Below are positions 2,053-64,000 of a DNA stretch of 64,000 nucleotides, in pieces (positions within the stretch are counted from its first letter, which is position 1; every line of letters begins with the position of its first letter). The position numbers were made by a program, and so were the translations under genes. Source of the stretch: a virus (lineage: Duplodnaviria > Caudoviricetes). Under the pieces are notes generated by a model. The model was not told the DNA's origin and did no database searches. It worked only from the letters and a program-made list of their open reading frames with translations. Where the stretch lies: positions 1 through 64,000 of IMG/VR virus record IMGVR_UViG_3300032232_001064; one strand, 5' to 3'.

Positions 2053-2055
2053 ATT

Positions 2056-2762: not shown

Positions 2763-2770
2763 GGATCGAA

Positions 2771-3238: not shown

Positions 3239-3240
3239 TC

Positions 3241-3432
3241 ATGTCTGTCTATAAAGCTTTTGTGGATGGGGCTGAGGTTTGGTCACAAACGGTTGACTTT
3301 TATCAGGGTGTTGTGCTTTTCCCAGATCAATACTTGCATCGACCTTCTAGTGGTGAAATCACGTTGATGTTCGACGACGAGACTATCTCCGTTTTGCGAC
3401 CACTAGAAGTTGATGAACCGATAGGAGAATAG
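3241..3432 (+). CDS. Hypothetical protein (63 aa)
   Basis: Operon-like spacing between neighbours. Confidence 0.5.
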   Translation: MSVYKAFVDGAEVWSQTVDFYQGVVLFPDQYLHRPSSGEITLMFDDETISVLRPLEVDEPIGE

Positions 3433-3438
3433 TTCTTT

Positions 3439-3819
3439 ATGACTCTTGGCTTTTCAACGGCTGCAAGAGCCGCGCGGATGAATGCTCTGGCGACACAGGC
3501 TGGATCAAACGCATGGTTGAGAATATACTCGGGGACGCGTCCAGCTACAGGAGGGACTGCGACCACGCTTCTGGTTGAACTGCAATGTACGACAACGCTT
3601 GCTCCCACGACCTCTACCGCCACGATAACACTAAACCCTTTTTCGACTGCTCTTATCTTAAATAGTGGAACAGCAACTTGGTTTAGGATTGCAACTTCGG
3701 CAAGTGTTGCCGTGATAGACGGCCAGTACGGTACAGACTTACAAGGATCAACGGCAACATTTGTTCAAGGTAGTCAGACCGCATTAACCTCATTCACGTT
3801 GACAGACGGCAATCCATAA
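3439..3819 (+). CDS. Small phage virion protein (126 aa)
   Basis: Pattern 'LRIYSGTRPA...GTATWFRI...VIDG..G.DL...SFTLTDGN' of a common phage structural family. Confidence 0.7.
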   Translation: MTLGFSTAARAARMNALATQAGSNAWLRIYSGTRPATGGTATTLLVELQCTTTLAPTTSTATITLNPFSTALILNSGTATWFRIATSASVAVIDGQYGTDLQGSTATFVQGSQTALTSFTLTDGNP

Positions 3820-3840
3820 AATCTAAAAAAGGATGCCAGT

Positions 3841-45054: not shown

Positions 45055-45627
45055 CTATGTAAGCAATCTTAAAAGTGTGCTCATCTCGGACGACACCTCT
45101 CTTTGAGAAAAGAGGTCGCTGCCGCCCTGGTAGCCGCGAAGCTTGCCGGTTGCTTCGTCCGCGTCTTCTTTGCCGATCTTTGCTTCGACGCGCTTTGTCA
45201 TCTCTTCAATGAGATCTTTCAGCACTGGCGGCAGGTCGGAAAACTTTACTTTGGCGGTGTCTTGACCAAAAGGCAGCGGAAGGTTGGCCATCACTTGGCC
45301 TAAAAGCCTTGCAGATTCACGCACATTCTCAAGAGATTGCGAGTTTAGTGCGCCAGTATCGAGTCTTTCAAGCAACGACTTAAGCTGTTGCGCCGACGAA
45401 GCAGCTTGCTTATAGTTGCCGGCGTTCAGCATGATGTCAAGTTCTTCAGCGCGTTCAAGAGATCGTTGTAGCCCAGACACGCCAAGGTTTTCCTTGATAC
45501 GCGCAAGGACCACACGGAATTTGCCCTTAGCGTCTCGGGGTTGATCCTTGCCAGACGTGTAGATCGTGTTCTCACGATCGTATTTTGCCGCAGCTAAAAC
45601 TGCATCTGGACTAAAAGCCTCAGTCAT
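45055..45627 (-). CDS. Hypothetical head-associated protein (190 aa)
   Basis: Between protease and capsid; 'DQPRDAKGKF' motif. Confidence 0.7.
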   Translation of the reverse strand: MTEAFSPDAVLAAAKYDRENTIYTSGKDQPRDAKGKFRVVLARIKENLGVSGLQRSLERAEELDIMLNAGNYKQAASSAQQLKSLLERLDTGALNSQSLENVRESARLLGQVMANLPLPFGQDTAKVKFSDLPPVLKDLIEEMTKRVEAKIGKEDADEATGKLRGYQGGSDLFSQREVSSEMSTLLRLLT

Positions 45628-48600: not shown

Positions 48601-50300
48601 GTGATCGGGCTGTACCAGAGACTATTTCCAGGTTTCTTGAGCCAATTCTGAAGAAGAGGATGGTCGTATGCACTGTCGTATAGACGATGACCAGACGACT
48701 TTTCAAGACCCTTAAGGTAGTCGCTGCGCTCATGTTTCGGAGCATTGTCGCCAGGAGCTTGAACCGTCTTTGGCCCGTTTGCTGTGCTTCCTGCTGGCGT
48801 GGCGGGCGCGTTGGCTGGTTGAACTTTTCCACGCTGCGACGCGACCCACGCAGGGAAGTCAGAAATGATCTGCTGAAGATCAGCCGGACCAAGAGCCGGT
48901 AGTCCGCCAGGAATAGTGGCATTCGGTCGATCAATTGGCGCTCGCGGCTGGCCAAGAATTCCAGACGTATCGAGTGGCGCTTGATCTGTCTTCGGGTCCT
49001 CAGGTTGTTGCACCATTGTCGGAACGTTTTCAGGAGCGTACGCCTCTGTCTGCGTGGCCGGAACTTCCTGAGTCGAACCGTCGTCCATTTTCACGGTCAC
49101 GGTGCCGGTCTGCTGGTTGATTCTCGTGATGCTACCGGTCTTTGTCGGATCACCGCCGACAGAAACACGACCGCCCATCTTCGCGAACTTGCCGCCCTTA
49201 TCGCGGACTTGGCGCTTAGCGTTTGCTGCACGCTCTTTCGGAGTGTAGCCGTCAGGTGTAGCACTAGTCGGAGGAGCGGGAGGAAGCACTTCACCGGCCG
49301 CTATGATTGTCGAATCGACAAGTACCCAGTCAATTTCATCAGCGGCAGCGGCAACAAGTTCGGCCTCATAGTCGTCGAGGTCTTCGACCTGCACAGACGT
49401 GAACGGTCGCTCCTGAAGTCGTGCAGAAATGATCAAGGCAGATTCAGGATCAATAAGTATGTGATGCTTTTCGCACGTATCGTGTGGATGATCCAGCGAC
49501 CGGTCGAAGGTCGCAATGTCGGAACCTGAATGTCCTAGATCGTCCCAGCCGGCTCCGTCCCAAACGAACGCTTGGCCTTCTTGGTTGATCATATATAGAC
49601 GATCAATTCCGGCGCCGTCAAGTCGAACTCGTGCCGCAAACTCAGGCGCGTTTGGTTGGCCCTCGTATGCGCGACCCATCTCGAACATGTCGATATCTGT
49701 GCCGTAGTTTTCGTAGATATCTTCATTGTTCTTGGATACGAAGCCGCCTGCAGATACGGCCTTATTCTCGCGCTCGACGATCTGCTTAGCCCACTTCCAC
49801 GCCGCGTCGCCGCCCCAAAGAGCCCACGCAATCCGTCCGTTCGAGGGATAGTTCTTATGACCGGGTCTGTACCCAGGTGCCTTCTTGTCGACCTCGTGTC
49901 GCGGGAAGTACTTCGCAATGTGACGTACCTTATTGAGTCCGATCTGGCCACCGTTTGCAAGTATGCGTGCGGTGTTCAGTCCGACAGGAGTCCCGCCGCG
50001 ATGATGCTCCTTGTGCCATTCAAGGGCCTTTTTAGCCTCTTCCTGAGCACCCTTAGGAATTGTGTACATCCTAGCAGAAGCGGTAATTGTCTGCACTGAA
50101 AGATCAGAAAGTGCGCCGGCAGCTAGCTCAGAATGAATATCATCTGCTTGCTGAACATCTTGGTTCCACGGCTGTAGCACGAGAAGGTCAGACAGCAGTC
50201 CGACCTCTTCAACCATATTCATTAGCTTGTCGATAACGACGGCGTTAGACCCATCAGCAAAAAGCGCGTAGCGCTCTGCTTCTCCGTAGAGCTCGATCAT
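45624..50300 (-). CDS. Capsid maturation protease polyprotein (1558 aa)
   Basis: Actinophage protease-like region 'PED.ETGDGR.F...LPLPLLWQ...GHDGSVVVGRID', 'SGDWR...LEL.A...VN.PGFP', plus multiple accessory domains. Confidence 0.8.
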   Translation of the reverse strand: MIELYGEAERYALFADGSNAVVIDKLMNMVEEVGLLSDLLVLQPWNQDVQQADDIHSELAAGALSDLSVQTITASARMYTIPKGAQEEAKKALEWHKEHHRGGTPVGLNTARILANGGQIGLNKVRHIAKYFPRHEVDKKAPGYRPGHKNYPSNGRIAWALWGGDAAWKWAKQIVERENKAVSAGGFVSKNNEDIYENYGTDIDMFEMGRAYEGQPNAPEFAARVRLDGAGIDRLYMINQEGQAFVWDGAGWDDLGHSGSDIATFDRSLDHPHDTCEKHHILIDPESALIISARLQERPFTSVQVEDLDDYEAELVAAAADEIDWVLVDSTIIAAGEVLPPAPPTSATPDGYTPKERAANAKRQVRDKGGKFAKMGGRVSVGGDPTKTGSITRINQQTGTVTVKMDDGSTQEVPATQTEAYAPENVPTMVQQPEDPKTDQAPLDTSGILGQPRAPIDRPNATIPGGLPALGPADLQQIISDFPAWVASQRGKVQPANAPATPAGSTANGPKTVQAPGDNAPKHERSDYLKGLEKSSGHRLYDSAYDHPLLQNWLKKPGNSLWYSPITSAATTEKPEVDAEQKPVEGLGEPLTPETSDVQPLHIAVVSPDDPAAVMDLVAVIPASTNSTVPTTFKRVDGKWVQDEQIMSDLKSATPPPVVALNEEVYQDVLQQVDSVVTASAHLELSSIGKRLLELQTAEINPLLAEGGADRNRGNAEKLRHYWLYGRGALKIRWNTPGDWTRCYHHLIKYMGVRAKGYCALRHKEATGVWTGSKFNVGKRNIRSSAFTAFDVADEAQVIEQARLRAAIADAKNRVVVASGNGIETPMYGAKFVIPLVIPEDTETGDGRIFRKGSINTRTLPLPLLWQIKTGDGHDGSVVVGRIDHMERIDGGIGNAHGVFDYGAYGREAERLVREKFISGVSADLDKFEASEDKDEDENDEASSKKISNSKISVDKARVMAVTIVPKPAFEECKIYIAEDAGNQGPQEAEMANVPDGVYVDSVDELDANALVACGMIADAIPVVPPAEWFENPKLTGPTPLTVDDTGRVFGHIAAWHVDHIGMAFGTKPPRSKSNYAYFHTGVVRADNGKDYPVGQLTLSGGHASLEASAVEAARHYDDTGSAIADVHAGEDAHGIWVAGSLRPGAGPEQVRALRASAPSGDWRPIKGSLELVAVCQVNVPGFPIARARVASGQVYALVAAGAMTLAKMKTDPLQELSKRLEKLEEHAGLSTLDQIRALRNGSKDTPHVADLSAKAEALAIKMRAGIPYDELGYISTKTREKLAGEGKALPDGSYPIRDVAELKDAIQAYGRSKPSKRAAVRRHIMKRARALKKADLIPEGWKTAGLIDDNVVDDLQARVASARSTVETATSTPEVAVLKARVAAARAELANKSDDKKVWEKDNPKDESTPLTPAQKAAAKAAAKKAGRPYPNMIDNINAAKKDKKSAAAATDEVDIPKALADQALVAGSGTVIAEESDLAKALIDIAGKYGKFNEDDTGVWAGYTPASENKNSEIGVNCSNCILYAGGSECKILAMPVEPLGTCRFALIPDGLVGKK

Positions 50301-51025
50301 TGTTCAGCACCCTCGCTCTTAGTAGATTCATCAGTGATCGGGCCACCAACGGCCCACGCGTCACATGTGCGGCTTGCCGCGCACTTGAAATCGAATGCCT
50401 CACAGTAGCCAAGTTCGGCCGCATCAATTGCGTCCCACGCATTCTGCCTACTGGAGTCGCCTTGCTCGAGCCCGCTCGCGATGCAGTCTCTCATCTTCGT
50501 AGTGACCACAAAAAAGACGCAATTACCGCAGAGACTCTTTTTTGCTTCGTCAGGAGTTACCGACCAGTTGTCAGCTTTTTGCTGCCAAAATTCGTCGTTG
50601 TCTTCGTTCGGATTTAGAGGACCGTACGCAGCGGCTTTTATTGCGCGTTTGCGATTCTTTAGGTTGACTGTGATGTCCGATGTTGCGACAGGGCACTTGT
50701 CGTCGGCAGCCGCCGTGACAGCGCTTTTCGCAGGCTTCTGTTGAATTCGATCAACAGGGATTGACATCTGCATTTTGTCATATTGATCAATGAACTCAGC
50801 ATCGACAAAGTCTAGAGAGTACTTTGGATCGTCAATGTCATTGATGAACTCCGCATCAACCTTTATCCAACCACCGCGCTCGCGGACAAATGTCGCGCGC
50901 TTTTCAATGCTTGAAAAAACTAGGTATTCGACCTCGCCAGTGTCTGTATCTTCTACTGCATACAGGTCATCGCCTTGTTGCAATTGCTGTGGCCACCTAA
51001 GTTTTTGACCGGTATCTGTAGTCAC
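50297..51025 (-). CDS. Hypothetical protein with C-terminal 4-Cys HiPIP-like domain
   Basis: 'CGNC.FF...GYC..FDFKCAASRTCDAW'. Confidence 0.7.
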   Translation of the reverse strand: MTTDTGQKLRWPQQLQQGDDLYAVEDTDTGEVEYLVFSSIEKRATFVRERGGWIKVDAEFINDIDDPKYSLDFVDAEFIDQYDKMQMSIPVDRIQQKPAKSAVTAAADDKCPVATSDITVNLKNRKRAIKAAAYGPLNPNEDNDEFWQQKADNWSVTPDEAKKSLCGNCVFFVVTTKMRDCIASGLEQGDSSRQNAWDAIDAAELGYCEAFDFKCAASRTCDAWAVGGPITDESTKSEGAEQ

Positions 51026-51393
51026 TTTTCGGTGTCCTTACTTGAATCATCAGCGATTTTGACGCCAGGAATGTCGTCATCCTCGATTGCTCTAATCATA
51101 TACTCAACGCCACCGCTCGAGAATTTAAAGAGACCCTGTTCTTCGCTAAAGACAAACTTTGAGTTTTTGTCTAGAGGATACTGTCCTTGCCCTGTTGGAC
51201 TGACGATCATTACAGCGCCGTTCGGGCCGTACATTAAAGAATTAGGCGATTTGCTTAGATCATATGCAGCGTAGATGACACGTTTTCTACCGTCATACGC
51301 GCCAGACAGGCACTCGAAAATTGCTACTTCAGAAAGTTCATTTCTGTCAGCATTCGGCCCAGACGTGTCGAGTAGCTTTAGTTTACGAGTCAT
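51022..51393 (-). CDS. Hypothetical protein (123 aa)
   Basis: Operon-packed ORF. Confidence 0.6.
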   Translation of the reverse strand: MTRKLKLLDTSGPNADRNELSEVAIFECLSGAYDGRKRVIYAAYDLSKSPNSLMYGPNGAVMIVSPTGQGQYPLDKNSKFVFSEEQGLFKFSSGGVEYMIRAIEDDDIPGVKIADDSSKDTEK

Positions 51394-51411
51394 GCTTAGA
51401 TTCTCCCACGA

Positions 51412-54400
51412 CTAGCGGTAAGCTGGACCGAATTTCTTCAATCCACCGGAGCTTCCATATAGGTAATTAACAATCATTGTTCTGACATCGTCTGGGAGAT
51501 CAAGACGAAGCATTACTAGAAGAGCGTCGTACACATCCTCTCCACTCATTTGACCGCCCCTAAACGCGTACATAATCGCATCGACTGTTTTAAGACGATC
51601 TTGAGCTAGGTCAAATCCTGCTAGTTCCTCACCTGAATGTCCGTATTTTCCAAACTTTACCCATTTAGGACTGTCAGGATCTAAAGCTTGTACTTCTTGA
51701 AGACCAAGTATTGCAAGTCTTCTTGGCTCAGTACTGTTGAAACTCTCTATGCGAAAGACTAATGGAGTGCCGTTGCCTGTTGTTTTGTACGCAATAATTT
51801 GACCTGTCTTTGGATTGTAGAGTGCGATCTTTGGGACGCCTGTTACGCCACCCAAATTATCCATGCCCCAAAGGTCGTAGTTATTAGAAAGAGGGCCGTT
51901 TCGATCGTCTCTTGCCGATTCAATAAAGTCACGAGCGTTCGGCGCGTCCTCTACTAAGCGCTCTCCAAATTTTTCAAGTTCTGCTTTCTCAAAACGGCCT
52001 CTTTCAGTTACTGGTCCTCGTCCTGCGATTCCAATGAAATCTTCAATTGGGATTCCGTTGATTTCGGAGACGTTTCTTTGTCTAAGAAGATCAAGGACCA
52101 CAGTTCTTTGGTCTTCACTGACAACGATGGCTGTTGCGTCCAACAGCGACGCGTGGTTCTTGAGCATAAACTCGTAGTATCCAGTGCCAATGTTAGCAAG
52201 ATAGTCGTCATGTGCTGCGGTAGCGCCAAATAGATCATCGCTGTTGGCCCACGTGTCAACTCTACGAAGCACTTTGTGATCATCGAAGATCACTGTAGCT
52301 GTTCCAGAATATGTTAGGTGCTCGTCTATGAGATGCGGACTCTGCATCTCTCCTTTTTGAGAAAGAAACACGTAGTCACCTGCACCTGACTTAAGGTCGT
52401 CAGACGTGCTAAGACCTTCGTAAATGAGTCCAAGTTGGAATCGCTGAGCCGCTGACATCAAAGCTCCCGGGCTGTTGTCCCCGTTCAAAATGATGTTTAC
52501 AAGATATTCGGCTTTTCTTTCAGCTGTTACGCCATGCAGACTAAAGTCGTGAGTTAGACCGCTTAATTTAGTTTTTTCAATGATCTTGTCAGCTAACTCT
52601 TGTGGACCGAGAACGTCGATAAAACCAGATGAGTTGGTTCTGACTGTAAAGTCTTCAGGTGCTACGCCAAAATCTTTTTTAATCTGAGCAAGGTAGTATT
52701 CTGCATCAGTTGGATTTCGAACTCCAGAAAGTGATCGTATGAGTTTTTTTCCAACAGCAAGATGAAGATCAGCCGGCGCGGCCTGACGTGGTTCTTTGAC
52801 CCCTAACACAGCAAGCGCGTCTTGGACTGCCTCGTCTGACGGATACGTTTCACTAAACTCTATGTTGACAGCGTTAGCCGTCACACTAGGTTTCTGGCCA
52901 TGCAGTTGCGAAAAATCTCTTGGCATCGCAACGATACGAAATCGCTTGTCAGGATCGAGATACTCAAATGCTTCTGTATTTGCGCCGTACACGTAATCAG
53001 ACCAAGACATTTTGCTTGGGTCTGAACTAAATGTTCCTGATACAGGATCGAATGTTCTGTATTCGATTCCTGAACCTTCTTTATGCTGTTTCCATCCGTC
53101 TTTTTTGCCACGCGCCTTGTTGTAGAGCTTAAATCCAGTAGCTTCAGTAAGCTTTAATGTCATTACGTGGCGAAGTTCCTGTCCACCGAGGTCGTCCGAC
53201 TTTGAGCCGAACCTCTCAAGTACGCTGACTTTTACCACAAGGTCCTCAATGTCATCGCCGTCGACAAGTGACGCCATGATCGCTTGCGGCGTCCCTGACG
53301 TCTTACTCATTGCCTCTTGAAGCGACCCAGAACCTTCAATGTGCGATGAACTAAAGTCACCGATAGGAAGCACGTTTGGATCGACTTCAGGTGCTTCTAC
53401 GGGCTCGGGCGCGACAGGTTCTGGAGTTTCAGTAGCGGGTGGCTTGTCTATTGATTCAAGACGAATTCTTGTTGTTGGAAGAAACTCTGTGATCTCGCCG
53501 TATTCTTCGTCAACAGAGAGTGGCATCATGTACGGCTCAACCGAAACGACGCGGTATTTGCCGTTTGACACGACAGACTCGACTTCGTAGGGGAGTGCTG
53601 ACGTTCCAGAAATATTAAATGCTTGAACACCATCAACTACGAGTACGACATCTCCAGTGTCCAAAAGCTGTGACTTAGCATAGTCAGACGGCGATCCTTG
53701 AAAAGCGCCATTGTCAAATTCTCTGACTACGTTTCCTAGGTTGTTCTCGAAAGTCCACGAAGACGGACGAAGATCGAACTCTTGGCCGACGTACGACAAC
53801 TGATGCAGCGGGTGCGATTCATCATTGAGCGGCACGTCAAACTTGACCCAACGGGCGTATGACGTGTTCTCTTTTACGCCAGCCGAACGCATTGCCCGCA
53901 GGAATGCTGACGCCGGCGTCATCTCTTTGTCAATCAGCGATGGATCGTCGTAGTACCGAGCAAGGTCAGTGTAGAACGACTCAGGCGTGAGCTTTCCTTT
54001 ACCGATCATGGTCATGTAGACGTAATCTTCAACGCCCGTTATCGGCTTGTCTTTTGGAGTTCTTTTGAATGTTGAAGTCTCCTTCATTGCTTCTTGCGGA
54101 CCAGCCTCTGTGAATATTGCTATTCCAGCGCGTAGGTTCTGCAGCAACGCGAATTCTTCTGATGCGGCATAGAGTGCGTCAGAATCTCCAAGCATTTCAA
54201 TCATCTCTATCGCATTTGTAGCTTCTTGATCAACTACTCCAGAATCTCTAAACTCAGCGAGGTGATTGACCCAATTTGCGGTGAACTCTGATCCAACGGC
54301 GTTCGGTCCCTCGGCGATCATCTTTTCGAGCAACTCTTTGTCGCGCGGTGTGTGATCTGGAGCGGCGTTCGAACCCTCCTGCGTGAGGTCGGGTGTCGCG

Positions 54401-57400
54401 ACGTGCGTACCGAGCTTTGTTGTCATTTCAGGCGTGTTGACTGGGGCGCCTGACGGAGGAGCGAAAGCTGGTTTTGGCTTCTCTTCAGCTTTTTTTATTG
54501 ATTCGATTTGGTCGTTATAGCCCCAAAATTCTGTTCCATCGCTATTGCGGATTACAAAACCCGGTTCGCCATTTTTGACATCATCTTGGATCTCGACAAC
54601 GGTGCCTGTTCTTAGATCACCACCTGTGGCACGATATGTGAGAGTGTCGCCGACGCTAAATCCGTACTTGCCGTCGTTTGGCGACGGCTTTAGCGGTCCA
54701 GGCTCGGCATCAGTCGCTGGTACTTGCTGAATTCCATTGCTTGGCGCCGGCTTGCGTTCCTCTTCGCCGCCGGCCCAAGCCTCTTCCTTTTTCTGCTCTT
54801 CGACATTCTCACGTAGAGCTTCTGTTGTACCGGCTTCAGGCTCTCCAGCCTCTCCTCCGCCTCCACTATCAGGCGCGGGGCCGGGTTCAACAACACCGAC
54901 GGGACCCTCGCCGTCATCACGGCCATTCATTTCTTCGAGCAGTCGTAGTTGCTCTTCGAGGTTCTTAGGCTTCTTACTTTCGGGAACCTTGCCAGTGTCC
55001 AGCCACGGAGAATTGTCGTCGCCTTCCTTGATCACAGTCAAGGTCTTTGTGTTCTTTGAAGTGGTGTTGGCCTTCGGGCCCCACTTACCTTTCTTGACCT
55101 TGTCCGGATCACGAGGATCGACGTCTTGAATGATGTAGACGTTGATGTAGTCTGCTTCATTGTAGCGAATAACGGTTCCAGCAAATCCCCACTTGTCTCG
55201 GACACGCATGCCGGGAGTGATGAAGATTCCTTCCTTGCTATAGCCGAGGCCGCTGCCGTCAGGAGGAAGACCCTTTCCGATCGGACGGTCAGCGAAGAGA
55301 CGATGCAAGTTAGTGATGCTCGCACGAGTGAATATAGTGTTTGGTCCCTTTTCAGGCAACCCGTCGAGCTTGGCGCTGAGATCTTGAAGCTCGCTTGCGG
55401 CCTCTTCGAACGTGATGTCGCCCTTTGTATAGCGATCAGCGATGTCAAGTGCTTCGTTAAGAAGGTCCTTGAACTGCTTCGTTTGGCTTGGCATTCCCTT
55501 TAGAGCATCGAGTGTGTCATTGAGATCTGCAACGATCTCTGACATTTGCTCGTCGAATTCGGGAGTGTTGACAGGCGGCAGACTACCAGTCGGCTCTACA
55601 CCGTCCGGCGTCTCAGGGGTACCGGTTTCGCCGGCAGAAACTTCCTCATGAGGAACTTCAGGTGTGGCGGCATTTCGCTCTTCTGTAGACTGCAGCTCTG
55701 CGTTGAGCTTCGCGTCGACAGCCTCAGCGACTTTTTCGTTGTAGAACGCCTGTGCCTCTTCGAGAGTCTTCTTGTTTCCAACATTGACGTTGTCAACTGT
55801 GACGTCCCAATTGCCGTAGTAGTCTTCGCGCAGGTAGCTTGATTCGTTGCCCTTAGCGTCCCACTCACCGTCACCATTGTCAACAAGTTCGTACTTGTCG
55901 AGCTCAGCTTTACGAACAGCTGGGTCAATGGCGGCAGGCGCCTCAGGAGCTTGCGGAGTCTCTACAACTTCAGGCGCATTAGGCGCTTCAGATACCTCAG
56001 GTACCTCAGGCGCTTCAGGTGCCTGCGGAGTTTCTGGAACCTCCGGCGCGTTAGGTGCCTCGGGTGCGCCAGGTGGCGGAAGGTCAACGGCGGGACCTGT
56101 CGGCGGAGCCATGAAATCAACGGGCTCGCCTGTCGGCGGCGCGAATCCTTCAGGCACGTTCTTGCCCGGAACATTCGGCAACTCGTCGTCATTCGATGTG
56201 TAGCCATAGACCCAGTCCAGCGCACCAGGATCGAGACGCTTCTTAGCGCGAGTTACAGCGACATACGCGAGACGCATTTCTTCGGGAGACGGCATGATCG
56301 TCTCGCCAGTGTTCTTGTCAATGCGCGGGCCCCAGAAGTCGTCATAGATCTTGACATTGTCCCATTCAAGACCCTTTGAGCGGTGTGCTGTCGTGACAAC
56401 AACATCGATGCCTTCATCTCCACCTGAAAGCGATTTCTTCAGCTTGTTGACTGCATCCGCTCGGCCTTCAGGGGACGAAACGCTGCGAACCCAGGTCTTG
56501 TTGTCCTTATTCCAAGCAAATCCAGCAGCTTTGATCTGATCTTTTACGTCAAACGTGGCGCCACCAAGAGCGATGGTGTCGCCAGTTACAGAGTAGTTCA
56601 ACGGGCCCTTTGGCGTATCAACGACAAGGCCACTCATGCCGCTGCTCATGTCTACAGCATCGACAAGATCGACTGGCTTTGCTTTACCGTCTTCACCGCC
56701 CTTATGGACTTTGACCCGGCTAAGCATGTCGTTTAGACCGTCGATACCAATCTCGTCGATCAGGTCTACGAACAGTTTGAGGCGGCGATTTTCGCCGTCT
56801 TTCGCATCCTTGAGAACCTCATCCCAGGAACGGTACTGCGCCAATTCATCGCTTATATTCTTTGGCTTTTCAGCAGGGAAGGCACCGTCCATCAGCCAAC
56901 GAGCTGTGTCGCTGAAGTCCTCAAGGCTGTTCTTGTAGTTAGCAGAAACGCCAACCGTACGACCAAGTTCGAGTTGATCAAAGATCGCCTTTATGGCACC
57001 GGCGTTTGAACGCACGAGCACGGCATCTGCGTTGTCCATCGATCCACGGTCAACTATTTCGCCATCAGGCCCAGCACCCTCGATGCGGTACTTTGAACCT
57101 AGAAGCGACAAGAACCTGTTGCCGATTCCAGCGACTTGAGGACCAAATCTCCAAGACTTCGTCAGTGGTAGATCGTGAGTTGCCTCGACCTTTTGAAGTT
57201 CGTCTTCCGCTCCACGGAATGCGTAAATCGCTTGATTGCCGTCGCCGACATACACCTTTTGGATGCTCTGGTCGGCGATAACCTTACCGATGACGGGGTT
57301 GATGTCTTGTGCTTCGTCGAAGAAGATTGTATTGGCAGGAGTCTTAAGCCCGGCGCCCTGCTTTGACAGATCGGGACGAGAAAGAGCCCACATCTTAGTG

Positions 57401-60400
57401 ACGTGCGTGTTTGTGACTGGTAGCCAACCTTTGGGATCGTTTAGGTCGTCCCACATCATGTTTGCCCAGTCGACGAGCTCCTGTGGCGGATCGACTAGAT
57501 CGAAGTGGCGCGGACTAATTTCATCATCGGCACTGATTCCAAAGTTGTTGATCCCTTTCTTTACGAGAGCGACGGTCTCGCGAGGGGTCAGTGTCTGCTC
57601 TTCGTCAGTGCCACGATTTATCGTGATACTTGTGATACCAAAGCGCTTTGCAACTTCAGACGGAAAGACATTTGACTTATTATTTTTACGCTTGTCAGTG
57701 ATATCTTTGCCGACAGCAGCCCAAGCAATTGAGTCAGCGGTACGCGCTTCAACGTTGTCTGGGAACTTTCCAGCAGCTTCTTCTTGGATTCCCTTGTTGA
57801 ATGCTACGTAGATGATTCGATCTTTTGGCTTTTCCTTCTTGAATCGACGCGCAATAAGCTGAAGCGTGCTTGTCTTTCCAGTTCCAGCAAGTGCACGAAC
57901 AACCGTGTCTTCGCCTGTCATCACAGCATCGATGATCTCGCGCTGCTGTTCTGTCGGCGGGAACTTTTCATCAGCGTACGGATCGCGTACATCAACGCCG
58001 TCACCGCTATGGTGGTCAATGTTTTGCGATCCAGCAAGGCTAGACGGCAAGCCGTCAGGGTCCACGCCGTCGTCCGGCTGCGGCGTCGCAGCTTTGATGA
58101 GATCGTCGGGGTCAGGCGTCGAGCACGGGCCGTTTGATCCGATGGAGGCGGTTAGTCCGGCAGTGCCGCAGTTCCAAGCGGCGGCGACAGCCTTGTCCAT
58201 CTCGTACTGAGCAAGATCGTCTTTGTACTGCTCAAGTGCTGCGTCATACTCGGCCTTATCGAGCTTTCTTGCTTCGAATCTGCCGTCAGCGTCCAGTAGA
58301 TCTGTAGGCGTGTCCGGCTTATCAATAGCACGTGTAAGCATCGCGTCGATGATGTTCCAAGACGCTTCGGCATCGACATCAGCACTGTGCCAGCCAGAGA
58401 TGCCGACATTTAGGTAGTCAGCAACCGGGCCAAGAGACTTACTTGCGCGGATCTGACCAGAAGATGTCTCAATGAAAGGCCCGTCTGGATTGGCCTTTGT
58501 CCACTTTGGAAGCGTAGAACCTGCCATGTCCATCGAGTCGATGGTGCCGGCGATGTTCATCTCTAGACCCTGCTCACTCAGCGTTCGCTGAAGAACCTCA
58601 AGATCAAATGGCACGTTTTGGCCACCGAGAATTGGGCTTTCGCCTGCGAACTCAATGAACTGCCTGTGAGCTTCGGCCATGCTCATTTGCTGTGCCAAGA
58701 ACTCGTCTGTAACAGGCTGTCCATCACCTTGGAAAAGGTTGTCTCTTGACCAACCAGAAAGGCGGAACTCAGGATTCATGTAGACGTTGAATCGCTCGAC
58801 AACCTTTCCGTCGCGGACGCGAACAGCGCCAAGTTGCACAGGTCGATTCAGCTCGTCCGGAGTGTCTGCTGTGCGGATTCCTGTAGTCTCATAATCAAAG
58901 AAAACCATTTCTGTGCCACGAATGACATCAGCTGCTTCTTGCCAGTTGTCGACACCTGTCAGCATTTCTTCCATCTGACCAGTGAAGCCACCTTGCTTTG
59001 GCTTCTTTGGCGCAGACGGACGGTGAAGTGCAGGCTTATCGCCCTTTGGCGGCAAAGTGCTGCCACGAGCAGCGTCGATTGTTGTCGACTCGTTCCACTC
59101 TTTGCGTTGTGATTCGTGCCCGGGGTAATAGCCCTGAACGCTTACCTTGCCCTTAGGAGTGGACTCGTCGCGGAAGACTTTTTCAATGACGAAAGAATCT
59201 CCGGCTGTGATGTCTCCAGGCTGAAGGTCCTGCGCCTCAAAGCCCATGGACTCCGTGAGCGGTACGGGTTCGGGGAAGAGGTTCGGATCTTCATTTCCTT
59301 CAGGAAGGTTGAACCGATCGATGATGTCTTGACGGCGAGACTTCAACTTATCTTTGATCAGCGCCGCTTGCTCTGGATCGCTGATCATCTGATCAACCAT
59401 CTCGTCAATGCGAGACGGTGCGATGTCTCTGACCTTCATCGCACCGATGCGAAGCTGCTCGTCTGTCGCGCCTTCGAACACCCGGGCCGCTTGCGGATAC
59501 GTATCAGGATCACGCATGATGTCGAGGTGGTTCGCGTTACGAGCGAAGAGCCCACCCTTAGGCTTTCCTGTTGCCGACCAAATAAGAGTGCCGCCCTGGT
59601 CAACGCGAACGGGCTCTCCATTCTTGTCGAGAACGATGTTTGTTGAACCATCGGCAACATAGCCAATAACGTCGTAGTTTCCTAGCCACGCGTCAACAAC
59701 AAAGTCCTCGCGAACTGCATCAAGAATCTTCGAATCATTGACGTCCATCGCGTCGATAAAGCCGCTAGTGTCAGCATTTGGAACTAGAGGAGAGACGATT
59801 CTAAGTTCGCCGTTCTTGTCTCCTAGTCCGGTGCCTGCAACGTTGACGCCGAGTTCTTCATAGAATGACGCGGCAAGCGCCTCTACCTCAGCGTGCGATT
59901 GCGACCTAGGAACCTTTACATAGTACTCATTGCCTTGCGGATCCCTAAAGAACCCACCTTGGTTGCTACCAGTTCCAGCTGCAAACTGTTTCCAGTTTTC
60001 CATCCCAGTGTACGCAATTTTGCTGGGAGCTTTTTGTTCTTGAGCACTCGGCGCGTTAGGAGTTTCTTCTGGAACAGCAGTTTCTACAACCTCTTGTGCA
60101 GAAGGCTGTTTCGGCGTGCGGCGAACTTGCACGACGTATTCATCGCCGGTTTTCCCATAGGCTAGAGGTTGCTTGCGCACAGAAACTACTTCAAGATCGC
60201 CATATCCGAAGTGCTCATTTTCAGGGAACCACGAGAATTTTTTAGCCTCGATCGAATCAAGTTCTCCAGGTAGCGCTTCAAAAACTACACGAGAGCCTGG
60301 ACGACCAGCGTGGATCATCTGCGAATCCCATGATCCATCTGTAAGATCGCGGTCTCCCCAGGACCTAGGCTCAAACCCGAACCTTGAACCTTCAGTCGTA

Positions 60401-63400
60401 TATAGATCAAGAAGATCTGAATCATTGTTATCTACATAGACAACGCGATACAGAGGTACTTCATTTGGCTTTGCTGCAGCCTTCGTCAAACGGAAGAAGT
60501 GGCCGACGGTATCGCCGCGTTCGAACGGAAGGTAGCCATTAAGAATGTCATTACGCTCTCGATTGAAGTGGTCGAAGCCACCGTAGTCTGCGCCTATTTG
60601 ATCGTAAAGTTGCTTTGCTTCGTTGACAAGATTCTCGTCAACATTAGTATCGTCGCCGCCAATATGCCTAAAGATCGCATTGAAAATTTGATCAGTACTC
60701 TCTTCAGAGCCGGGTCTTGGCCACGGCGTCTTGAGGTGCTCTTCAATGCCTGAATCGCCGCCGTCGAGAGAAAGCAACATTCCCCAGAAGCCAGCGAATG
60801 CCGCATTCTCTTCTGAATTTTTACTTAGAGCGTACGGTAGAAGTTTTTCAAGAGTATTCTCAAGATCTCTTCCAATATTCCAACTCGTAGGCTCTTTAGT
60901 TAGGTCTTGCAGATCTTGTAGAACCTTGCCTATTTCGGCGTATTTGTCGTTTGTCTCGACAAAATCCATGATTTCATGAGTCACGCGATCGACGTTCGCG
61001 GCAAATGGCGTCATCTTTGGCTGCTGACGAATCTCCGGCTCGCGAAGTCGCTCCAGCGTTTCGTTCGTTACCGGAATTTCATTGCGGAACGGGTTTGACT
61101 CAGGCTTATCAAGCATGCCGGTGACTTCGGCATTGATCCGCTCAACGTTGGTCATTTCGCGGTTTGGATCGAGCTTTGAGTCATATATTGCCGCGACAAT
61201 CAAGTCACCGTCATGGCCTTGGTTGTTGATCGCCTCGAACAGGGCCTCGGCTTTTACAGATTCTGGACCATCTCTGAACTCAAGTGTTCCTGATCCTGAA
61301 GCCGGTTCTCCGTTACTTGAAGGAAGAATAGCCTCTTTAAGAGCCTGGGCCAGTTCGTCGACTTCAAACATAGAGGAAAGTACGACGGGGTCGTCTGTAA
61401 AGTCTGCACTCTTCTCGTTTGTGCGTCCCTGCGGTTGGTACTCTCTAAAGATATCTACCTTGTACGCGCCAGGAGGCGTGTCCATGATGCTGTCAAATGC
61501 AGCGTCAAACGCTGATTTATCCATGGTGTCGTCCACTGACGCATCGTTTACCTCTACAGGTAGCGCGTCAATCTTGTCAACGATAAATGTACGATCTTCT
61601 CCGTCACCATGGCTAAATCCAACAACATTAGTAGTTCCAGTGTTTGGATTGGTGTAGATGCGTTCCGGAGTGAACACACGTTCTTTTCCGTTATAGTCAA
61701 ACCGAATTGGTGACTTGCTTCCTATAGCATCTTCAATTTGCGAACGAAGATTGCCGACTGTTTCGCCGATAAGAGGCGATGCGTCTTCCGGGATTTCTGG
61801 AGCGGTCTTCTTTTCGACCATCTTTTCGACAGTAAACGTTCGCTTTTCGCCGCTATCATCAATGCCGATGACATTGGTGTTTCCGGTCTGATTGTTGACC
61901 CACGAGCCAGTCGGCGTGAATGTGCGCTCTTTACCGTTGTAGTCGAATCGAACCTGAGTGCCGTCGGCGATTGCTTGTTCGATCTGCGCGATCTTGTCCT
62001 GTGGCGACTTCCCGGTAATATCTCTTGGGCTACCTGTCGGCAGCGCAGCAGCAGCAGGTTCAGCGGCCTCCGGAGCGTTTACTTCTGGAGCGACCTGTTC
62101 GGGAGCGCCGGCTTCAGCCTGCTTTAGAATATCGTCAATCGTGTCCGCGACCGCAGGGTGCAGCTCACCGCGATCGCGCATGGCGAGAATCTCATCGGCT
62201 GTGAAGTATCCAGCGTCAGTTGTTTCATAGCCGTCGATCTTGTACTTGTCTTTGTCCTCAGGCTTGATATCAGCGATGACAGTGCTGTATCCCCAACCGG
62301 GCTCGACTTGGTTTACATGCACACCCTTTACTTCAGGTGTGTAGTCGAGGTTCATGTTCAGCTCTTCGCTGAGTTCCTCGAGTGCAGTTCCTACGGGATC
62401 ATTCGCAGAGTCGCGGTCCTTGTACGCGCCGCCTGGGAAGCCCCACTTGCCGCCGCCACCGGACACCCACGTCGCACGCTTGCCAAGCATGTAGCGGGGG
62501 ACACCGTCTTCGCCTACGGTGCGAGGAAGAATGCCGGCGCCACCGTACTTACCCCAGTAGCGCTTTCCGTTTTCAGCGAAGTAGTAACCTTCGCCGTTTT
62601 CGTCTGACTTTGTGTCGCCTTCAAGTGGAATGAACAGCGGCAATACGGGAGGCGTCAAACTTCCATCACGAATTTGATCGGCTGTGCCCCATGAGTAGCC
62701 GTAGCCAACCGCGATCCCGTCCTTGTCGGCGCGGATCGTTCCACCGTTCCAAGAGATCGGCTTAGCCGGCTCGGGCTCGGGTGTCGGCGCGGTCTCTGCA
62801 GGCTTTTCGAGCTCTGGAATATCAGCAGCAGGGGCATCACGCAGTGACGGATCAAGACCGGCGCTTTCCACCTGATCTTGCGTCAGAGGATCGCCGCTCG
62901 GGTCGGTGTACTCGCCCTTTGTAGCGTCCCAGCGCACTTCATCGCGATCAATTTTTGCAGCGCTCGGCGCTTCGGCAGCCGGAGGTAGCGTGGGCGGAGG
63001 AAGCGGTTGCTTTTGCTCGCCGGGCGTGGGCGGAGGAAGTACCTGACGCTCGGCTACGCTAGGCGGAGGAAGTTGTTCTTTCTTCTGATCTTTGCCTTCG
63101 GGCGGGTAGATCTTCGTTTCAGGAAGAACGTCTACTTCTTTTGCGTTACGGACAGCTTCAATGTCTGCAACTAGATTTTCGTGCCCTGTACGATCCTCAG
63201 GCTTTGCGCGTGTACCATCGAGGACGCGACCGATGAGATCGCTCCACGTCTGTGCTCTTGAAAGCATGAATTCACGGAACTTAGACCCAAGCGGCGCATC
63301 GTCAGCGGCGTCAAGGGCGTCATCAGCCTTGTCCATGGCTCCTGAAACCATTGACGGTTCGTAGTCCGGCAGATCAACGCCAGCAAAGTCCTGCATCACA

Positions 63401-63999
63401 TAGGGGCTTTTGGCTTCACCAGAGATGTAGCCGGCACCATTTGGCGTAACTGAACTTGTTGTCTTGCCGTAAGGCGTGTCAAGTGCACGCTTAGCGTCGG
63501 CCATCCGATACCAAGTGTTCGTGCTGATGTAGTCGCCATCTGACATCGCCTGCACGAAGTTGCTTATATTCGTTGCAACGCTCAGAGAGATGCCGTTCGA
63601 GATGATCTGGTTGCTGTCCGTTGAGAAGTACGGACGATCAATTGTTCCACCGTCGAGACCTCCAGCCCATGCGACAAGGTCGGCTTTGCCGGCTTCATCT
63701 AGAATGCCAGGCGTGCCGTCAAACGACGCGTACGCAGGATCCTTTGAGACATTCTTAAGTAGCGCCTTGTACTGCTTAGGCGTAAACATGTCAGACTTGC
63801 TGTTGGCGATCTTCTTTCGAAGATCGTCTGTCGGGTTCTGACGAGCAAAGTCAACAGCCTTTTGCCACTCGGGATTGTCGAACGAAGAAAATGTCGGATT
63901 CTTTATCTGCTTCTGAATCCAAGCTTCAGCTTTCTTCTCTGAATAGCTTGGCTTTTCATCATAAAGCCGTTTCTTAAATTCTGCCTTAAAGCCGGGAGC
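51412..63999 (-). CDS. Giant multi-enzyme (polyvalent) head-operon protein, at least 4195 aa, N-terminus outside window
   Basis: The frame is open from 63999 (APGFKAEFKK...KSDMFTP) to TAG at 51412. Domains: Nudix, 2x WYL-like, ART, HipA/PI3K-like kinase, DEDDh exonuclease, UvrD-like helicase, second ART. Confidence 0.9.
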   Translation of the reverse strand, partial: APGFKAEFKKRLYDEKPSYSEKKAEAWIQKQIKNPTFSSFDNPEWQKAVDFARQNPTDDLRKKIANSKSDMFTPKQYKALLKNVSKDPAYASFDGTPGILDEAGKADLVAWAGGLDGGTIDRPYFSTDSNQIISNGISLSVATNISNFVQAMSDGDYISTNTWYRMADAKRALDTPYGKTTSSVTPNGAGYISGEAKSPYVMQDFAGVDLPDYEPSMVSGAMDKADDALDAADDAPLGSKFREFMLSRAQTWSDLIGRVLDGTRAKPEDRTGHENLVADIEAVRNAKEVDVLPETKIYPPEGKDQKKEQLPPPSVAERQVLPPPTPGEQKQPLPPPTLPPAAEAPSAAKIDRDEVRWDATKGEYTDPSGDPLTQDQVESAGLDPSLRDAPAADIPELEKPAETAPTPEPEPAKPISWNGGTIRADKDGIAVGYGYSWGTADQIRDGSLTPPVLPLFIPLEGDTKSDENGEGYYFAENGKRYWGKYGGAGILPRTVGEDGVPRYMLGKRATWVSGGGGKWGFPGGAYKDRDSANDPVGTALEELSEELNMNLDYTPEVKGVHVNQVEPGWGYSTVIADIKPEDKDKYKIDGYETTDAGYFTADEILAMRDRGELHPAVADTIDDILKQAEAGAPEQVAPEVNAPEAAEPAAAALPTGSPRDITGKSPQDKIAQIEQAIADGTQVRFDYNGKERTFTPTGSWVNNQTGNTNVIGIDDSGEKRTFTVEKMVEKKTAPEIPEDASPLIGETVGNLRSQIEDAIGSKSPIRFDYNGKERVFTPERIYTNPNTGTTNVVGFSHGDGEDRTFIVDKIDALPVEVNDASVDDTMDKSAFDAAFDSIMDTPPGAYKVDIFREYQPQGRTNEKSADFTDDPVVLSSMFEVDELAQALKEAILPSSNGEPASGSGTLEFRDGPESVKAEALFEAINNQGHDGDLIVAAIYDSKLDPNREMTNVERINAEVTGMLDKPESNPFRNEIPVTNETLERLREPEIRQQPKMTPFAANVDRVTHEIMDFVETNDKYAEIGKVLQDLQDLTKEPTSWNIGRDLENTLEKLLPYALSKNSEENAAFAGFWGMLLSLDGGDSGIEEHLKTPWPRPGSEESTDQIFNAIFRHIGGDDTNVDENLVNEAKQLYDQIGADYGGFDHFNRERNDILNGYLPFERGDTVGHFFRLTKAAAKPNEVPLYRVVYVDNNDSDLLDLYTTEGSRFGFEPRSWGDRDLTDGSWDSQMIHAGRPGSRVVFEALPGELDSIEAKKFSWFPENEHFGYGDLEVVSVRKQPLAYGKTGDEYVVQVRRTPKQPSAQEVVETAVPEETPNAPSAQEQKAPSKIAYTGMENWKQFAAGTGSNQGGFFRDPQGNEYYVKVPRSQSHAEVEALAASFYEELGVNVAGTGLGDKNGELRIVSPLVPNADTSGFIDAMDVNDSKILDAVREDFVVDAWLGNYDVIGYVADGSTNIVLDKNGEPVRVDQGGTLIWSATGKPKGGLFARNANHLDIMRDPDTYPQAARVFEGATDEQLRIGAMKVRDIAPSRIDEMVDQMISDPEQAALIKDKLKSRRQDIIDRFNLPEGNEDPNLFPEPVPLTESMGFEAQDLQPGDITAGDSFVIEKVFRDESTPKGKVSVQGYYPGHESQRKEWNESTTIDAARGSTLPPKGDKPALHRPSAPKKPKQGGFTGQMEEMLTGVDNWQEAADVIRGTEMVFFDYETTGIRTADTPDELNRPVQLGAVRVRDGKVVERFNVYMNPEFRLSGWSRDNLFQGDGQPVTDEFLAQQMSMAEAHRQFIEFAGESPILGGQNVPFDLEVLQRTLSEQGLEMNIAGTIDSMDMAGSTLPKWTKANPDGPFIETSSGQIRASKSLGPVADYLNVGISGWHSADVDAEASWNIIDAMLTRAIDKPDTPTDLLDADGRFEARKLDKAEYDAALEQYKDDLAQYEMDKAVAAAWNCGTAGLTASIGSNGPCSTPDPDDLIKAATPQPDDGVDPDGLPSSLAGSQNIDHHSGDGVDVRDPYADEKFPPTEQQREIIDAVMTGEDTVVRALAGTGKTSTLQLIARRFKKEKPKDRIIYVAFNKGIQEEAAGKFPDNVEARTADSIAWAAVGKDITDKRKNNKSNVFPSEVAKRFGITSITINRGTDEEQTLTPRETVALVKKGINNFGISADDEISPRHFDLVDPPQELVDWANMMWDDLNDPKGWLPVTNTHVTKMWALSRPDLSKQGAGLKTPANTIFFDEAQDINPVIGKVIADQSIQKVYVGDGNQAIYAFRGAEDELQKVEATHDLPLTKSWRFGPQVAGIGNRFLSLLGSKYRIEGAGPDGEIVDRGSMDNADAVLVRSNAGAIKAIFDQLELGRTVGVSANYKNSLEDFSDTARWLMDGAFPAEKPKNISDELAQYRSWDEVLKDAKDGENRRLKLFVDLIDEIGIDGLNDMLSRVKVHKGGEDGKAKPVDLVDAVDMSSGMSGLVVDTPKGPLNYSVTGDTIALGGATFDVKDQIKAAGFAWNKDNKTWVRSVSSPEGRADAVNKLKKSLSGGDEGIDVVVTTAHRSKGLEWDNVKIYDDFWGPRIDKNTGETIMPSPEEMRLAYVAVTRAKKRLDPGALDWVYGYTSNDDELPNVPGKNVPEGFAPPTGEPVDFMAPPTGPAVDLPPPGAPEAPNAPEVPETPQAPEAPEVPEVSEAPNAPEVVETPQAPEAPAAIDPAVRKAELDKYELVDNGDGEWDAKGNESSYLREDYYGNWDVTVDNVNVGNKKTLEEAQAFYNEKVAEAVDAKLNAELQSTEERNAATPEVPHEEVSAGETGTPETPDGVEPTGSLPPVNTPEFDEQMSEIVADLNDTLDALKGMPSQTKQFKDLLNEALDIADRYTKGDITFEEAASELQDLSAKLDGLPEKGPNTIFTRASITNLHRLFADRPIGKGLPPDGSGLGYSKEGIFITPGMRVRDKWGFAGTVIRYNEADYINVYIIQDVDPRDPDKVKKGKWGPKANTTSKNTKTLTVIKEGDDNSPWLDTGKVPESKKPKNLEEQLRLLEEMNGRDDGEGPVGVVEPGPAPDSGGGGEAGEPEAGTTEALRENVEEQKKEEAWAGGEEERKPAPSNGIQQVPATDAEPGPLKPSPNDGKYGFSVGDTLTYRATGGDLRTGTVVEIQDDVKNGEPGFVIRNSDGTEFWGYNDQIESIKKAEEKPKPAFAPPSGAPVNTPEMTTKLGTHVATPDLTQEGSNAAPDHTPRDKELLEKMIAEGPNAVGSEFTANWVNHLAEFRDSGVVDQEATNAIEMIEMLGDSDALYAASEEFALLQNLRAGIAIFTEAGPQEAMKETSTFKRTPKDKPITGVEDYVYMTMIGKGKLTPESFYTDLARYYDDPSLIDKEMTPASAFLRAMRSAGVKENTSYARWVKFDVPLNDESHPLHQLSYVGQEFDLRPSSWTFENNLGNVVREFDNGAFQGSPSDYAKSQLLDTGDVVLVVDGVQAFNISGTSALPYEVESVVSNGKYRVVSVEPYMMPLSVDEEYGEITEFLPTTRIRLESIDKPPATETPEPVAPEPVEAPEVDPNVLPIGDFSSSHIEGSGSLQEAMSKTSGTPQAIMASLVDGDDIEDLVVKVSVLERFGSKSDDLGGQELRHVMTLKLTEATGFKLYNKARGKKDGWKQHKEGSGIEYRTFDPVSGTFSSDPSKMSWSDYVYGANTEAFEYLDPDKRFRIVAMPRDFSQLHGQKPSVTANAVNIEFSETYPSDEAVQDALAVLGVKEPRQAAPADLHLAVGKKLIRSLSGVRNPTDAEYYLAQIKKDFGVAPEDFTVRTNSSGFIDVLGPQELADKIIEKTKLSGLTHDFSLHGVTAERKAEYLVNIILNGDNSPGALMSAAQRFQLGLIYEGLSTSDDLKSGAGDYVFLSQKGEMQSPHLIDEHLTYSGTATVIFDDHKVLRRVDTWANSDDLFGATAAHDDYLANIGTGYYEFMLKNHASLLDATAIVVSEDQRTVVLDLLRQRNVSEINGIPIEDFIGIAGRGPVTERGRFEKAELEKFGERLVEDAPNARDFIESARDDRNGPLSNNYDLWGMDNLGGVTGVPKIALYNPKTGQIIAYKTTGNGTPLVFRIESFNSTEPRRLAILGLQEVQALDPDSPKWVKFGKYGHSGEELAGFDLAQDRLKTVDAIMYAFRGGQMSGEDVYDALLVMLRLDLPDDVRTMIVNYLYGSSGGLKKFGPAYR

Positions 64000-64000
64000 A

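Follow-up and report, generated by a model that had tools for sequence, protein, structure and literature searches.

A giant multi-enzyme protein encoded in the head operon of an uncultured actinophage shares candidate loading modules with its neighbours

Introduction

Polyvalent proteins of phages and conjugative elements (Iyer, Burroughs, Anand, de Souza and Aravind, 2017; PMC5512222) are the closest described counterparts of the protein studied here. They combine many effectors in one chain, including ADP-ribosyltransferase (ART), kinase, helicase and nucleotide-metabolism domains, are encoded together with head genes, and are predicted to be delivered with the DNA. The subject of this study is a 4,611-residue protein, hereafter the giant protein, encoded on the minus strand of IMG/VR virus record IMGVR_UViG_3300032232_001064, of which we analysed positions 1-64,000 (the window) and, for the gene's beginning, the adjoining part of the full contig. 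The giant protein shares these features, and its relatives also contain the ArdC-N and MPTase-PolyVal domains. An initial annotation, made from the sequence alone, had compared it to phage 'polyvalent' and MuF-fused proteins, and given its many unrelated domains and its location among head genes the polyvalent class is correct. On balance, we consider it probable that the giant protein is a multi-effector that is packaged into the phage head and ejected into the next host.

The similarity is incomplete. The giant protein has no MuF, portal or Zn-ribbon anchor, and instead carries a DUF5824-like domain and a second N-terminal element, which we call the QRRDR/MGGG module. Its kinase is of the CtkA/HipA/PI4K-like type, in contrast to the truncated Ser/Thr kinase of the polyvalent proteins. 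In the portion of PMC5512222 available, UvrD helicases are mentioned only for giant proteins of actinomycete plasmids and a conserved DarT-like C-terminal domain (CTD) is not described.

Two further systems invite comparison. MuF polymorphic toxins of temperate phages (Jamet et al., 2017; PMC5576092) place variable C-terminal toxins, including ARTs, behind an N-terminal head-associated domain; the giant protein differs in lacking MuF (by Pfam), in being far larger, in carrying many domains simultaneously and in having no recognised immunity gene. In phage T4, Alt and the internal proteins, with their capsid-targeting sequence and gp21 processing, are the precedent for packaged cargo that includes an ART (PMC9958956, PMC9026906), and processed ejection proteins provide another precedent (PMC10052503). 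Alt is packaged in the head, ejected, and modifies the host at entry, and a short N-terminal signal shared among the T4 internal proteins loads varied cargo. The T4 signal is ~10 residues long and cleaved, whereas the giant protein has a folded module of ~90 residues and a DUF5824-like domain. Packaging of effector proteins into the phage head is a known idea; the family of giant proteins and the shared "loading" module were previously undescribed.

Results

A single reading frame with at least nine domains

The window covers bases 1-64000 of a 72,859-bp linear IMG/VR contig with a CheckV completeness of ~50%. The initial annotation had reported a single frame open past the window edge; the full contig shows an intact start and 4,611 codons on the minus strand (51412-65247, ATG at 65247, directly past the stop of the upstream gene). 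The open frame spans 13.8 kb and the protein has an approximate mass of ~500 kDa. An identical 4,611-residue protein was already recorded in a protein collection (P0003), and megablast of the whole gene against phage records gave no match. Its carrier is an uncultured siphovirus-type phage of freshwater actinobacteria with a genome of about 130-145 kb. Its major capsid protein shares 78% identity with the one of Actinomycetia phage DSL-LC01 and is more distantly related to those of Microbacterium, Arthrobacter, Gordonia and Mycobacterium phages.

Every domain that we checked (Nudix, two WYL, two ARTs, kinase, DEDDh, UvrD) lies at its initially proposed place, the initial coordinates falling inside the ranges assigned here, and the Pro/Glu/Ala-rich linkers are directly legible in the translation. 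In total, the giant protein carries at least nine verified domains. The following features were assigned, with residues in full-protein numbering (subtract 416 for residues counted within the window):

51412..64000, minus strand: part of the giant open reading frame (ORF) within the window; the rest extends to contig position 65247
Contig ~64350-65190, beyond the window, minus strand: DUF5824-like domain (residues ~20-120) and QRRDR/MGGG module (residues ~185-300), by profile homology
62263..62598, minus strand: Nudix domain, residues 884-995; RenU 6uuf at E 1.8e-11 (whole protein) and 2.7e-13 (segment)
61561..62010, minus strand: two WYL-like units, residues 1080-1148 and 1169-1229; Pfam WYL E 9e-6, PADLOC WYL E 1.8e-10 in two stretches
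60112..60609, minus strand: ART1, R-S-ExE type, residues 1547-1712, by AlphaFold (AF2) model and VIA fold search
59281..60018, minus strand: atypical protein-kinase-like domain of the CtkA/HipA/PI4KII/CotH type, residues 1744-1989
58351..58905, minus strand: DEDDh (RNase T/DnaQ-like) 3'-5' exonuclease, residues 2115-2299; Pfam RNase_T E 2e-10, phrog_192, PADLOC DEDDh
56230..57981, minus strand: UvrD-like superfamily 1 helicase, residues 2423-3006; Pfam UvrD/UvrD_C/AAA_19, phrog_1967 E 2e-84, FBH1 9xzj E 4e-30
54748..55650, minus strand: conserved segment, residues ~3200-3500, initially annotated as SH3-like units; fold unassigned, from the BLAST map
53515..53961, minus strand: ART2, paralogue of ART1, residues ~3763-3911
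52015..53358, minus strand: family-defining CTD, residues 3964-4411, with its core at residues 4217-4411 (window 52015-52599)
51415..52014, minus strand: C-terminal tail, residues 4412-4611; low model confidence, shared by few relatives

N-terminal modules shared with other head-operon proteins

The N-terminal domain (NTD) connects the giant protein to its neighbours. A profile built from the first 400 residues of five giant proteins matched the DUF5824 proteins encoded upstream with an hhalign probability of 99.85% (E 8e-31), and the two share the motif DLLPxxHPxS...TASA; the Pfam DUF5824 model (PF19141) itself stays below threshold on the giant protein's NTD. The second element, a module of ~90 residues, opens with ARSxRAxLQRRDRxGRFAxMGGGF and continues into a small beta-rich part. 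In related loci it forms the N terminus of separately encoded PI3/PI4-kinase-like proteins, follows the DUF5824 region in a 726-residue protein, and is N-terminal in the post-portal protein of DSL-LC01. A divergent copy occupies a fixed position near residue 360 in all six of the six protease-bearing head proteins compared (probability 96.1%, E 3e-9). Among proteins of 213-2,000 residues, a word-based search recovered 14 carriers of the module, some of which contain PI3_PI4-kinase, DUF5824 or WYL and KTSC Pfam domains. BLAST of the neighbouring proteins against the giant protein had yielded just two hints, a match between the Dps protein and the NTD (E 0.012) and a 14-residue match in the 1,558-residue head protein, and both were later confirmed by profile comparison.

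Given that the QRRDR/MGGG module is common to separate kinase genes and to the protease-bearing head protein, we regard it as a candidate head-loading tag. MuF, which the initial annotation had suggested looking for once the N terminus was recovered, was not found with Pfam and PHROG, either in residues 1-449 or in the rest of the protein; the MuF-like annotation belongs to homologues of the 1,558-residue protein, the product of the next large gene.

In two related loci (L008:5034-6626 and L009:4750-6621), a separate PI3/PI4-kinase-like gene is located just upstream of the giant gene and its product begins with QRRDRxGRFAEMGGGF; the called start in L009 seems to be too far downstream. Because these separate kinases start with the module, the cargo is part of the giant protein in some phages and a protein of its own in others. 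A DUF5824-like segment also occurs in an 839-residue hypothetical protein of Salinibacter phage 4_17 (L011:5077-7596); in ~180 Salinibacter phage records, this protein directly precedes the major head protein.

Conserved ends and shuffled cargo in the family of giant proteins

The giant protein has ~40 giant relatives of 2,830-7,986 residues. In these, the NTD always comes first and the CTD almost always last, while the cargo between them (Nudix, ART, helicase, ArdC/MPTase-PolyVal) is shuffled. The core of ART1, kinase, exonuclease and helicase is collinear among relatives at 38-54% identity. Nudix is found near the N terminus of the 4,611-residue protein and near the C terminus of relatives, and the cargo gained or lost includes KTSC, pentapeptide repeats, GNAT, additional ARTs of the PF03496 type (as many as four in a row) and the pair of ArdC-N and MPTase-PolyVal, which is found in more distant relatives (P0027-P0035). 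Judged from these sequences, the family has the layout of polymorphic effectors that are delivered, with a fixed NTD, shuffled cargo and a fixed CTD.

Among 50,697 phage records, DSL-LC01 is the sole carrier of the NTD or CTD. Its genome of 129 kb is metagenome-assembled, from Dishui Lake (PMC10611076), and its 3,289-residue protein WJZ48510 (OQ999401) occupies the same slot between portal and protease. Identity to the giant protein is 47% in the NTD, 39% in ART1 and the kinase, and 26% in the CTD, whereas BLAST finds no match to residues ~2000-3960, the part that contains the exonuclease, helicase and ART2. WJZ48510 is annotated as hypothetical only and is not discussed in the available portion of PMC10611076.

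Four relatives (P0011-P0014), of which P0012 has 7,986 residues, carry up to four tandem PF03496-type ARTs and a second kinase-like copy.

Two ADP-ribosyltransferase folds and an atypical kinase

Because Pfam missed both ARTs and the kinase, residues 1480-2000 were modelled with AlphaFold (AF2) on a family alignment of 20 sequences, giving a mean predicted local distance difference test (pLDDT) score of 75. In VIA searches, the ART1 model matched Tre1 (6drh_B; Z 9.6, 135 residues aligned, root-mean-square deviation 3.5), CPILE-a (5gtt; Z 8.5), HopU1 (3u0j; Z 8.1) and Vis (4xzj; Z 8.1). R1601, R1628 and E1676-x-E1678 are invariant in the 20 family members, and S1629 lies next to invariant R1628 within the PRS(F/W) motif of the family consensus. 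ART2 aligns with ART1 in hhalign (probability 97.2%, E 3e-11) such that the R, S and ExE positions coincide, its own motifs at these positions being YAR, PSSW and EVE. These models and alignments identify ART1 and ART2 as ADP-ribosyltransferase-fold domains of the R-S-ExE type. Pfam ADPrib_exo_Tox (PF03496) has no match in the giant protein. Membership of ART1 and ART2 in PF03496 was considered and rejected: hhalign aligns them weakly (E 0.02-0.05) with PF03496-type domains found in relatives, and we therefore label them by fold and motif rather than by that family.

The kinase model resembles CtkA (VIA Z 15.6; Foldseek E 5e-6), CotH (Z 13.6), PI4KIIalpha (Z 13.5) and HipA (Z 11.7). Across the 20 sequences, a GSNxGG loop, K1778, E1789, D1852-x4-N1857-x-D1859, N1870 and D1883 are invariant. 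The domain thus shares with the CtkA/HipA/PI4KII/CotH kinases the fold, the Gly-rich loop, the Lys, the Glu, the catalytic Asp/Asn loop and the metal-binding Asp, but differs from them in having no Pfam match and a distinctive D-A-W-L-x-N-x-D loop. Stand-alone kinase paralogues in relatives match PF00454.

The pairing of an R-S-ExE ART with a kinase recurs in gp117 of Pseudomonas phage Dolphis. A module like the giant protein's kinase is present, at 29-33% identity, in two proteins of cultured phages, Dolphis gp117 (1,222 residues) and GodonK gp67 (1,479 residues), which could serve as experimental stand-ins. The gene for gp67 of GodonK, a Gordonia phage, directly follows the portal gene, and both proteins are annotated only as ADP-ribosyltransferase or hypothetical. 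A search for related IMG/VR loci with the ART-kinase segment alone as query returned no relative.

A C-terminal domain with a probable DarT-like fold

An exhaustive HMMER search with residues 3950-4611 recovered ~246 representative clusters (at 50% identity) in proteins of 1,000-7,000 residues, nearly always at the extreme C terminus. The CTD family, with members of up to 7,986 residues, is confined to uncultured phages and has been annotated as hypothetical only.

We modelled the CTD with AlphaFold (AF2) from 45 sequences (pLDDT 74; predicted template modelling score 0.71). Foldseek (probability 0.91-0.98, E 0.025-0.06) and VIA (Z 6.3-7.7, a range that VIA rates as common) both ranked DarT proteins of four species first for the core. 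The best VIA match was E. coli DarT1 (Z 7.7), with an alignment of 149 of 208 residues that spans chain residues 1-190, and the remaining matches all belong to the ART superfamily (Tpt1, CC0527, SopF, CteC, pierisin and cholera toxin). At least 90% of the 45 sequences retain H4233, R4269, S4280, D4284 and E4359, and the spacing of these residues, compared as spacing rather than by superposition, resembles that of R52/D54/S63/E152 in DarT1 (PMC11543638). The model therefore makes an ART-superfamily fold for the CTD core quite likely; that the CTD acts on nucleic acid as DarT does is considerably less certain.

DarT of the DarTG toxin-antitoxin systems (PMC11543638, PMC5179494) is the best structural match of the core, with similar spacing of H, R, S and E. 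The CTD differs in lacking detectable sequence similarity to DarT and in terminating a giant phage protein. Neither a DarG macrodomain nor a NADAR antitoxin was matched by Pfam in the giant protein or its two downstream neighbours, and nothing clear emerged when the CTD model was compared to the viral structures of BFVD. An ESM Atlas feature search with the NTD and the CTD gave no usable matches. While the initial annotation had left C-terminal domains unassigned, fold searches with the model suggest that the conserved core is probably a third ART of the giant protein, with a DarT-like fold.

Nudix, WYL, exonuclease and helicase domains

The remaining domains were assigned by sequence and profile searches. 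The Nudix box of the giant protein diverges from the canonical GX5EX7REUXEEXGU: it retains the EE pair and the E before it, but has E in place of R, N in place of G, and longer spacing. Relatives of the giant protein carry the Nudix family PF00293. Scores exceed the curated Pfam cut-offs for WYL (26 bits; cut-off 21.8), RNase_T in the exonuclease (41.8 bits; cut-off 24), and UvrD-helicase and UvrD_C in the helicase (41.5 bits, cut-off 23, and 39.1 bits, cut-off 25.6, respectively). Walker A, the DEAQD box and the later helicase motifs are all legible in the sequence. The conserved segment at residues ~3200-3500 is found in 22 of the 40 relatives on the BLAST map.

Organisation of the head operon

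The giant gene had been placed in the head operon, upstream of the protease, and this placement holds: it lies after the genes for the portal and a Dps-like protein and before those for the protease-bearing protein and the capsid. On the minus strand, the order is portal (583 residues), Dps-DUF5824 (367), giant, 123 residues, 242 residues, 1,558 residues, 190 residues, capsid, 364 residues (function unassigned), major tail protein and adaptor. DSL-LC01 and four independent metagenome contigs (102-140 kb) have the same head-gene order, namely portal, Dps/DUF5824, giant, ~100 residues, ~240 residues, a protease protein of ~1,400 residues, ~190 residues and capsid. The neighbours with assigned features are:

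Contig 65263-66366 (L002:5264-6367), beyond the window, minus strand: Dps/ferritin-DUF5824-like fusion, 367 residues; Dps Pfam E 3.5e-15, C-terminal half homologous to the giant protein's NTD
51022..51393, minus strand: 123-residue gene, conserved directly after the giant gene in relatives (L007-L009)
50297..51025, minus strand: 242-residue cysteine-rich protein, 45-59% identical across five phages
45624..50300, minus strand: 1,558-residue head protein with a divergent QxRDKxGKFAKMGG module at residues ~355-430
43089..44930, minus strand: major capsid protein, 613 residues; phrog_777 E 4e-88

The Dps-DUF5824 fusion may be a second head cargo. No family match was obtained for the 123-residue protein. 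Numerous cysteines are invariant in the 242-residue protein (CP..T.D, CGNC, GYCE.FDFKCAASRTCDAW), whose DSL-LC01 counterpart bears the annotation high-potential iron-sulfur protein, and Cys-rich inserts are present in the DUF5824 proteins of relatives, too. Taken together with the upstream Dps ferritin, these Cys-rich sequences give the head module an iron or iron-sulfur theme. Residues 840-1244 of the 1,558-residue protein are homologous to capsid maturation protease and protease-MuF-like fusion proteins in 987 actinophage records; comparison of this protein to the PDB gave no match. It is encoded by a single ORF here, as compared to three annotated ORFs (603, 851 and 183 residues) in DSL-LC01.

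Discussion

We propose that the giant protein would be made late, together with the head proteins, and loaded into the procapsid through the DUF5824-like domain and the ~90-residue QRRDRxGRFAxMGGG beta-module of its NTD, a role suggested by the presence of these elements in further products of this head operon. It would then travel in the virion and be ejected with the DNA into the next host, where its enzymes could act ahead of any phage gene expression. The two R-S-ExE ARTs and the CtkA/HipA-like kinase might modify host proteins, and the DarT-like C-terminal ART nucleic acid or protein; the Nudix domain could clear NAD/ADP-ribose-type nucleotides (NAD, nicotinamide adenine dinucleotide) or caps, the WYL units may sense ligands, and the DEDDh exonuclease and UvrD helicase might process DNA ends. 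Loading, ejection, any proteolytic processing and all of these targets are steps that we infer. We favour packaging on indirect grounds, because the giant protein is expressed with the head genes, because its enzymes would mainly be useful at entry, and because its N-terminal modules are shared with head-operon proteins, including the protease protein. What the sequences show directly is the ORF with its domain identities and conserved catalytic residues, the synteny of the locus, the sharing of N-terminal modules, and how large the family is.

Several observations weigh against this proposal. The carriers of the NTD or CTD are all uncultured. Pfam finds no MuF (PF04233), portal-fusion or peptidase domain in the giant protein. 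Cleavage at the linkers, as initially envisaged, is not borne out: in addition to the missing peptidase domain, no linker motif recurs, the only recurring short motifs being low-complexity words of the PEAP type. At ~500 kDa, the giant protein must unfold or be cut for passage through the tail. The QRRDR/MGGG module could serve oligomerisation or regulation instead of loading, and the activity of the Nudix domain appears uncertain in light of its divergent box. The scores behind the DarT-like assignment of the CTD are moderate (Z 7.7, Foldseek E 0.03), and the CTD profile gave only chance matches, and no DarT, against PDB sequences.

The missing MuF, portal-fusion and peptidase domains would also suit a polyprotein that is expressed late, remains in the cytoplasm of the producing cell and acts there instead of being packaged, with co-regulation as the only reason for its location in the head operon. 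Such a factor might shut down host DNA metabolism or defence late in infection or process concatemeric phage DNA for packaging, and the helicase and exonuclease could indeed serve DNA maturation. We nevertheless find this explanation, and the roles it implies, rather unlikely: a fixed NTD, shuffled cargo and a fixed CTD form the pattern of a delivered effector, the N-terminal modules recur in other head-operon proteins including the protease-bearing one, host-modifying ARTs and kinases would be most useful at entry, and relatives bear ArdC-N and MPTase-PolyVal, which are typical of proteins co-transferred with DNA (PMC5512222). Very large size, long low-complexity linkers and a location in the head module might also befit a mainly structural internal head protein, such as an inner-body, core or DNA-organising component that is retained in the capsid or forms an ejection conduit, with its enzymes being secondary; large internal proteins are known from T7, P22 and phiKZ-like phages (PMC8402733, PMC10052503). 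Invariance of the catalytic residues of all enzyme domains across relatives speaks against this possibility, and the gain, loss and shuffling of cargo among close relatives (2,830-7,986 residues) misfits a size-constrained part, which makes it improbable in our view.

A third scenario derives from Kavagutti et al. (2019; PMC6802176), who interpreted the ART genes of 24 freshwater phages, mostly actinophages, as "Trojan horse" toxins against eukaryotic grazers that eat infected cells. Relatives of the giant protein do carry PF03496 domains of the VIP2/C3 type. Here, however, the ARTs are embedded in a head-operon giant beside DNA enzymes, a kinase and Nudix, neither the giant protein nor the proteins encoded next to it match a Pfam family for translocation or for B-type receptor binding, and the ART-kinase pair is present in phages of soil and enteric bacteria as well, so that we assign this scenario a very low probability. 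An assembly chimera or other artefact might be suspected from the metagenomic origin of the contig and from a G+C content that varies between 0.476 and 0.555 in 2-kb steps along the window. Yet the frame stays open for 13.8 kb, giant proteins on independent contigs from other samples align collinearly with its core of 1,800 residues (48-54% identity), and the flanking synteny on those contigs is identical. Given that ~40 relatives keep the gene order while shuffling the cargo, we reject the chimera and consider artefacts of any kind next to negligible.

If the giant protein is packaged as we propose, a single particle would bring three ART-fold enzymes, a kinase, a Nudix hydrolase, an exonuclease and a helicase into the cell before phage gene expression, which would rank among the richest pre-made takeover and anti-defence kits in one polypeptide. 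Both the recurrent pairing of ART with kinase and the terminal DarT-like domain suggest that NAD-dependent chemistry takes place in the first seconds of infection, which mirrors the NAD-based defences of bacteria. A bolder extension, which we offer tentatively and hold to be doubtful, is a portable capsid-loading system: DUF5824-like and QRRDRxGRFAxMGGG tags would load arbitrary enzymes (the Dps ferritin, a stand-alone kinase, giant proteins of up to ~8,000 residues) through a docking site shared with the protease-bearing assembly protein, and the DarT-like CTD would ADP-ribosylate host nucleic acid at entry. In function, such a system would parallel the cargo-loading peptides of encapsulins or the capsid-targeting sequence of T4. 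The shared N-terminal modules provide a concrete handle on how tailed phages choose the protein cargo of their capsids and could be used to tag foreign proteins for loading into phage heads. We see the main interest of this work in these candidate cargo-loading modules and in the size and richness of an undescribed family.

Finally, base composition is uneven along the locus. G+C content is 0.476-0.488 in the 2-kb steps over 50001-54000 and 60001-62000, and 0.527-0.555 in the other steps of 54001-64000. The low-G+C steps coincide with the CTD/ART2 and WYL/ART1 segments, and these modules may have been acquired separately.

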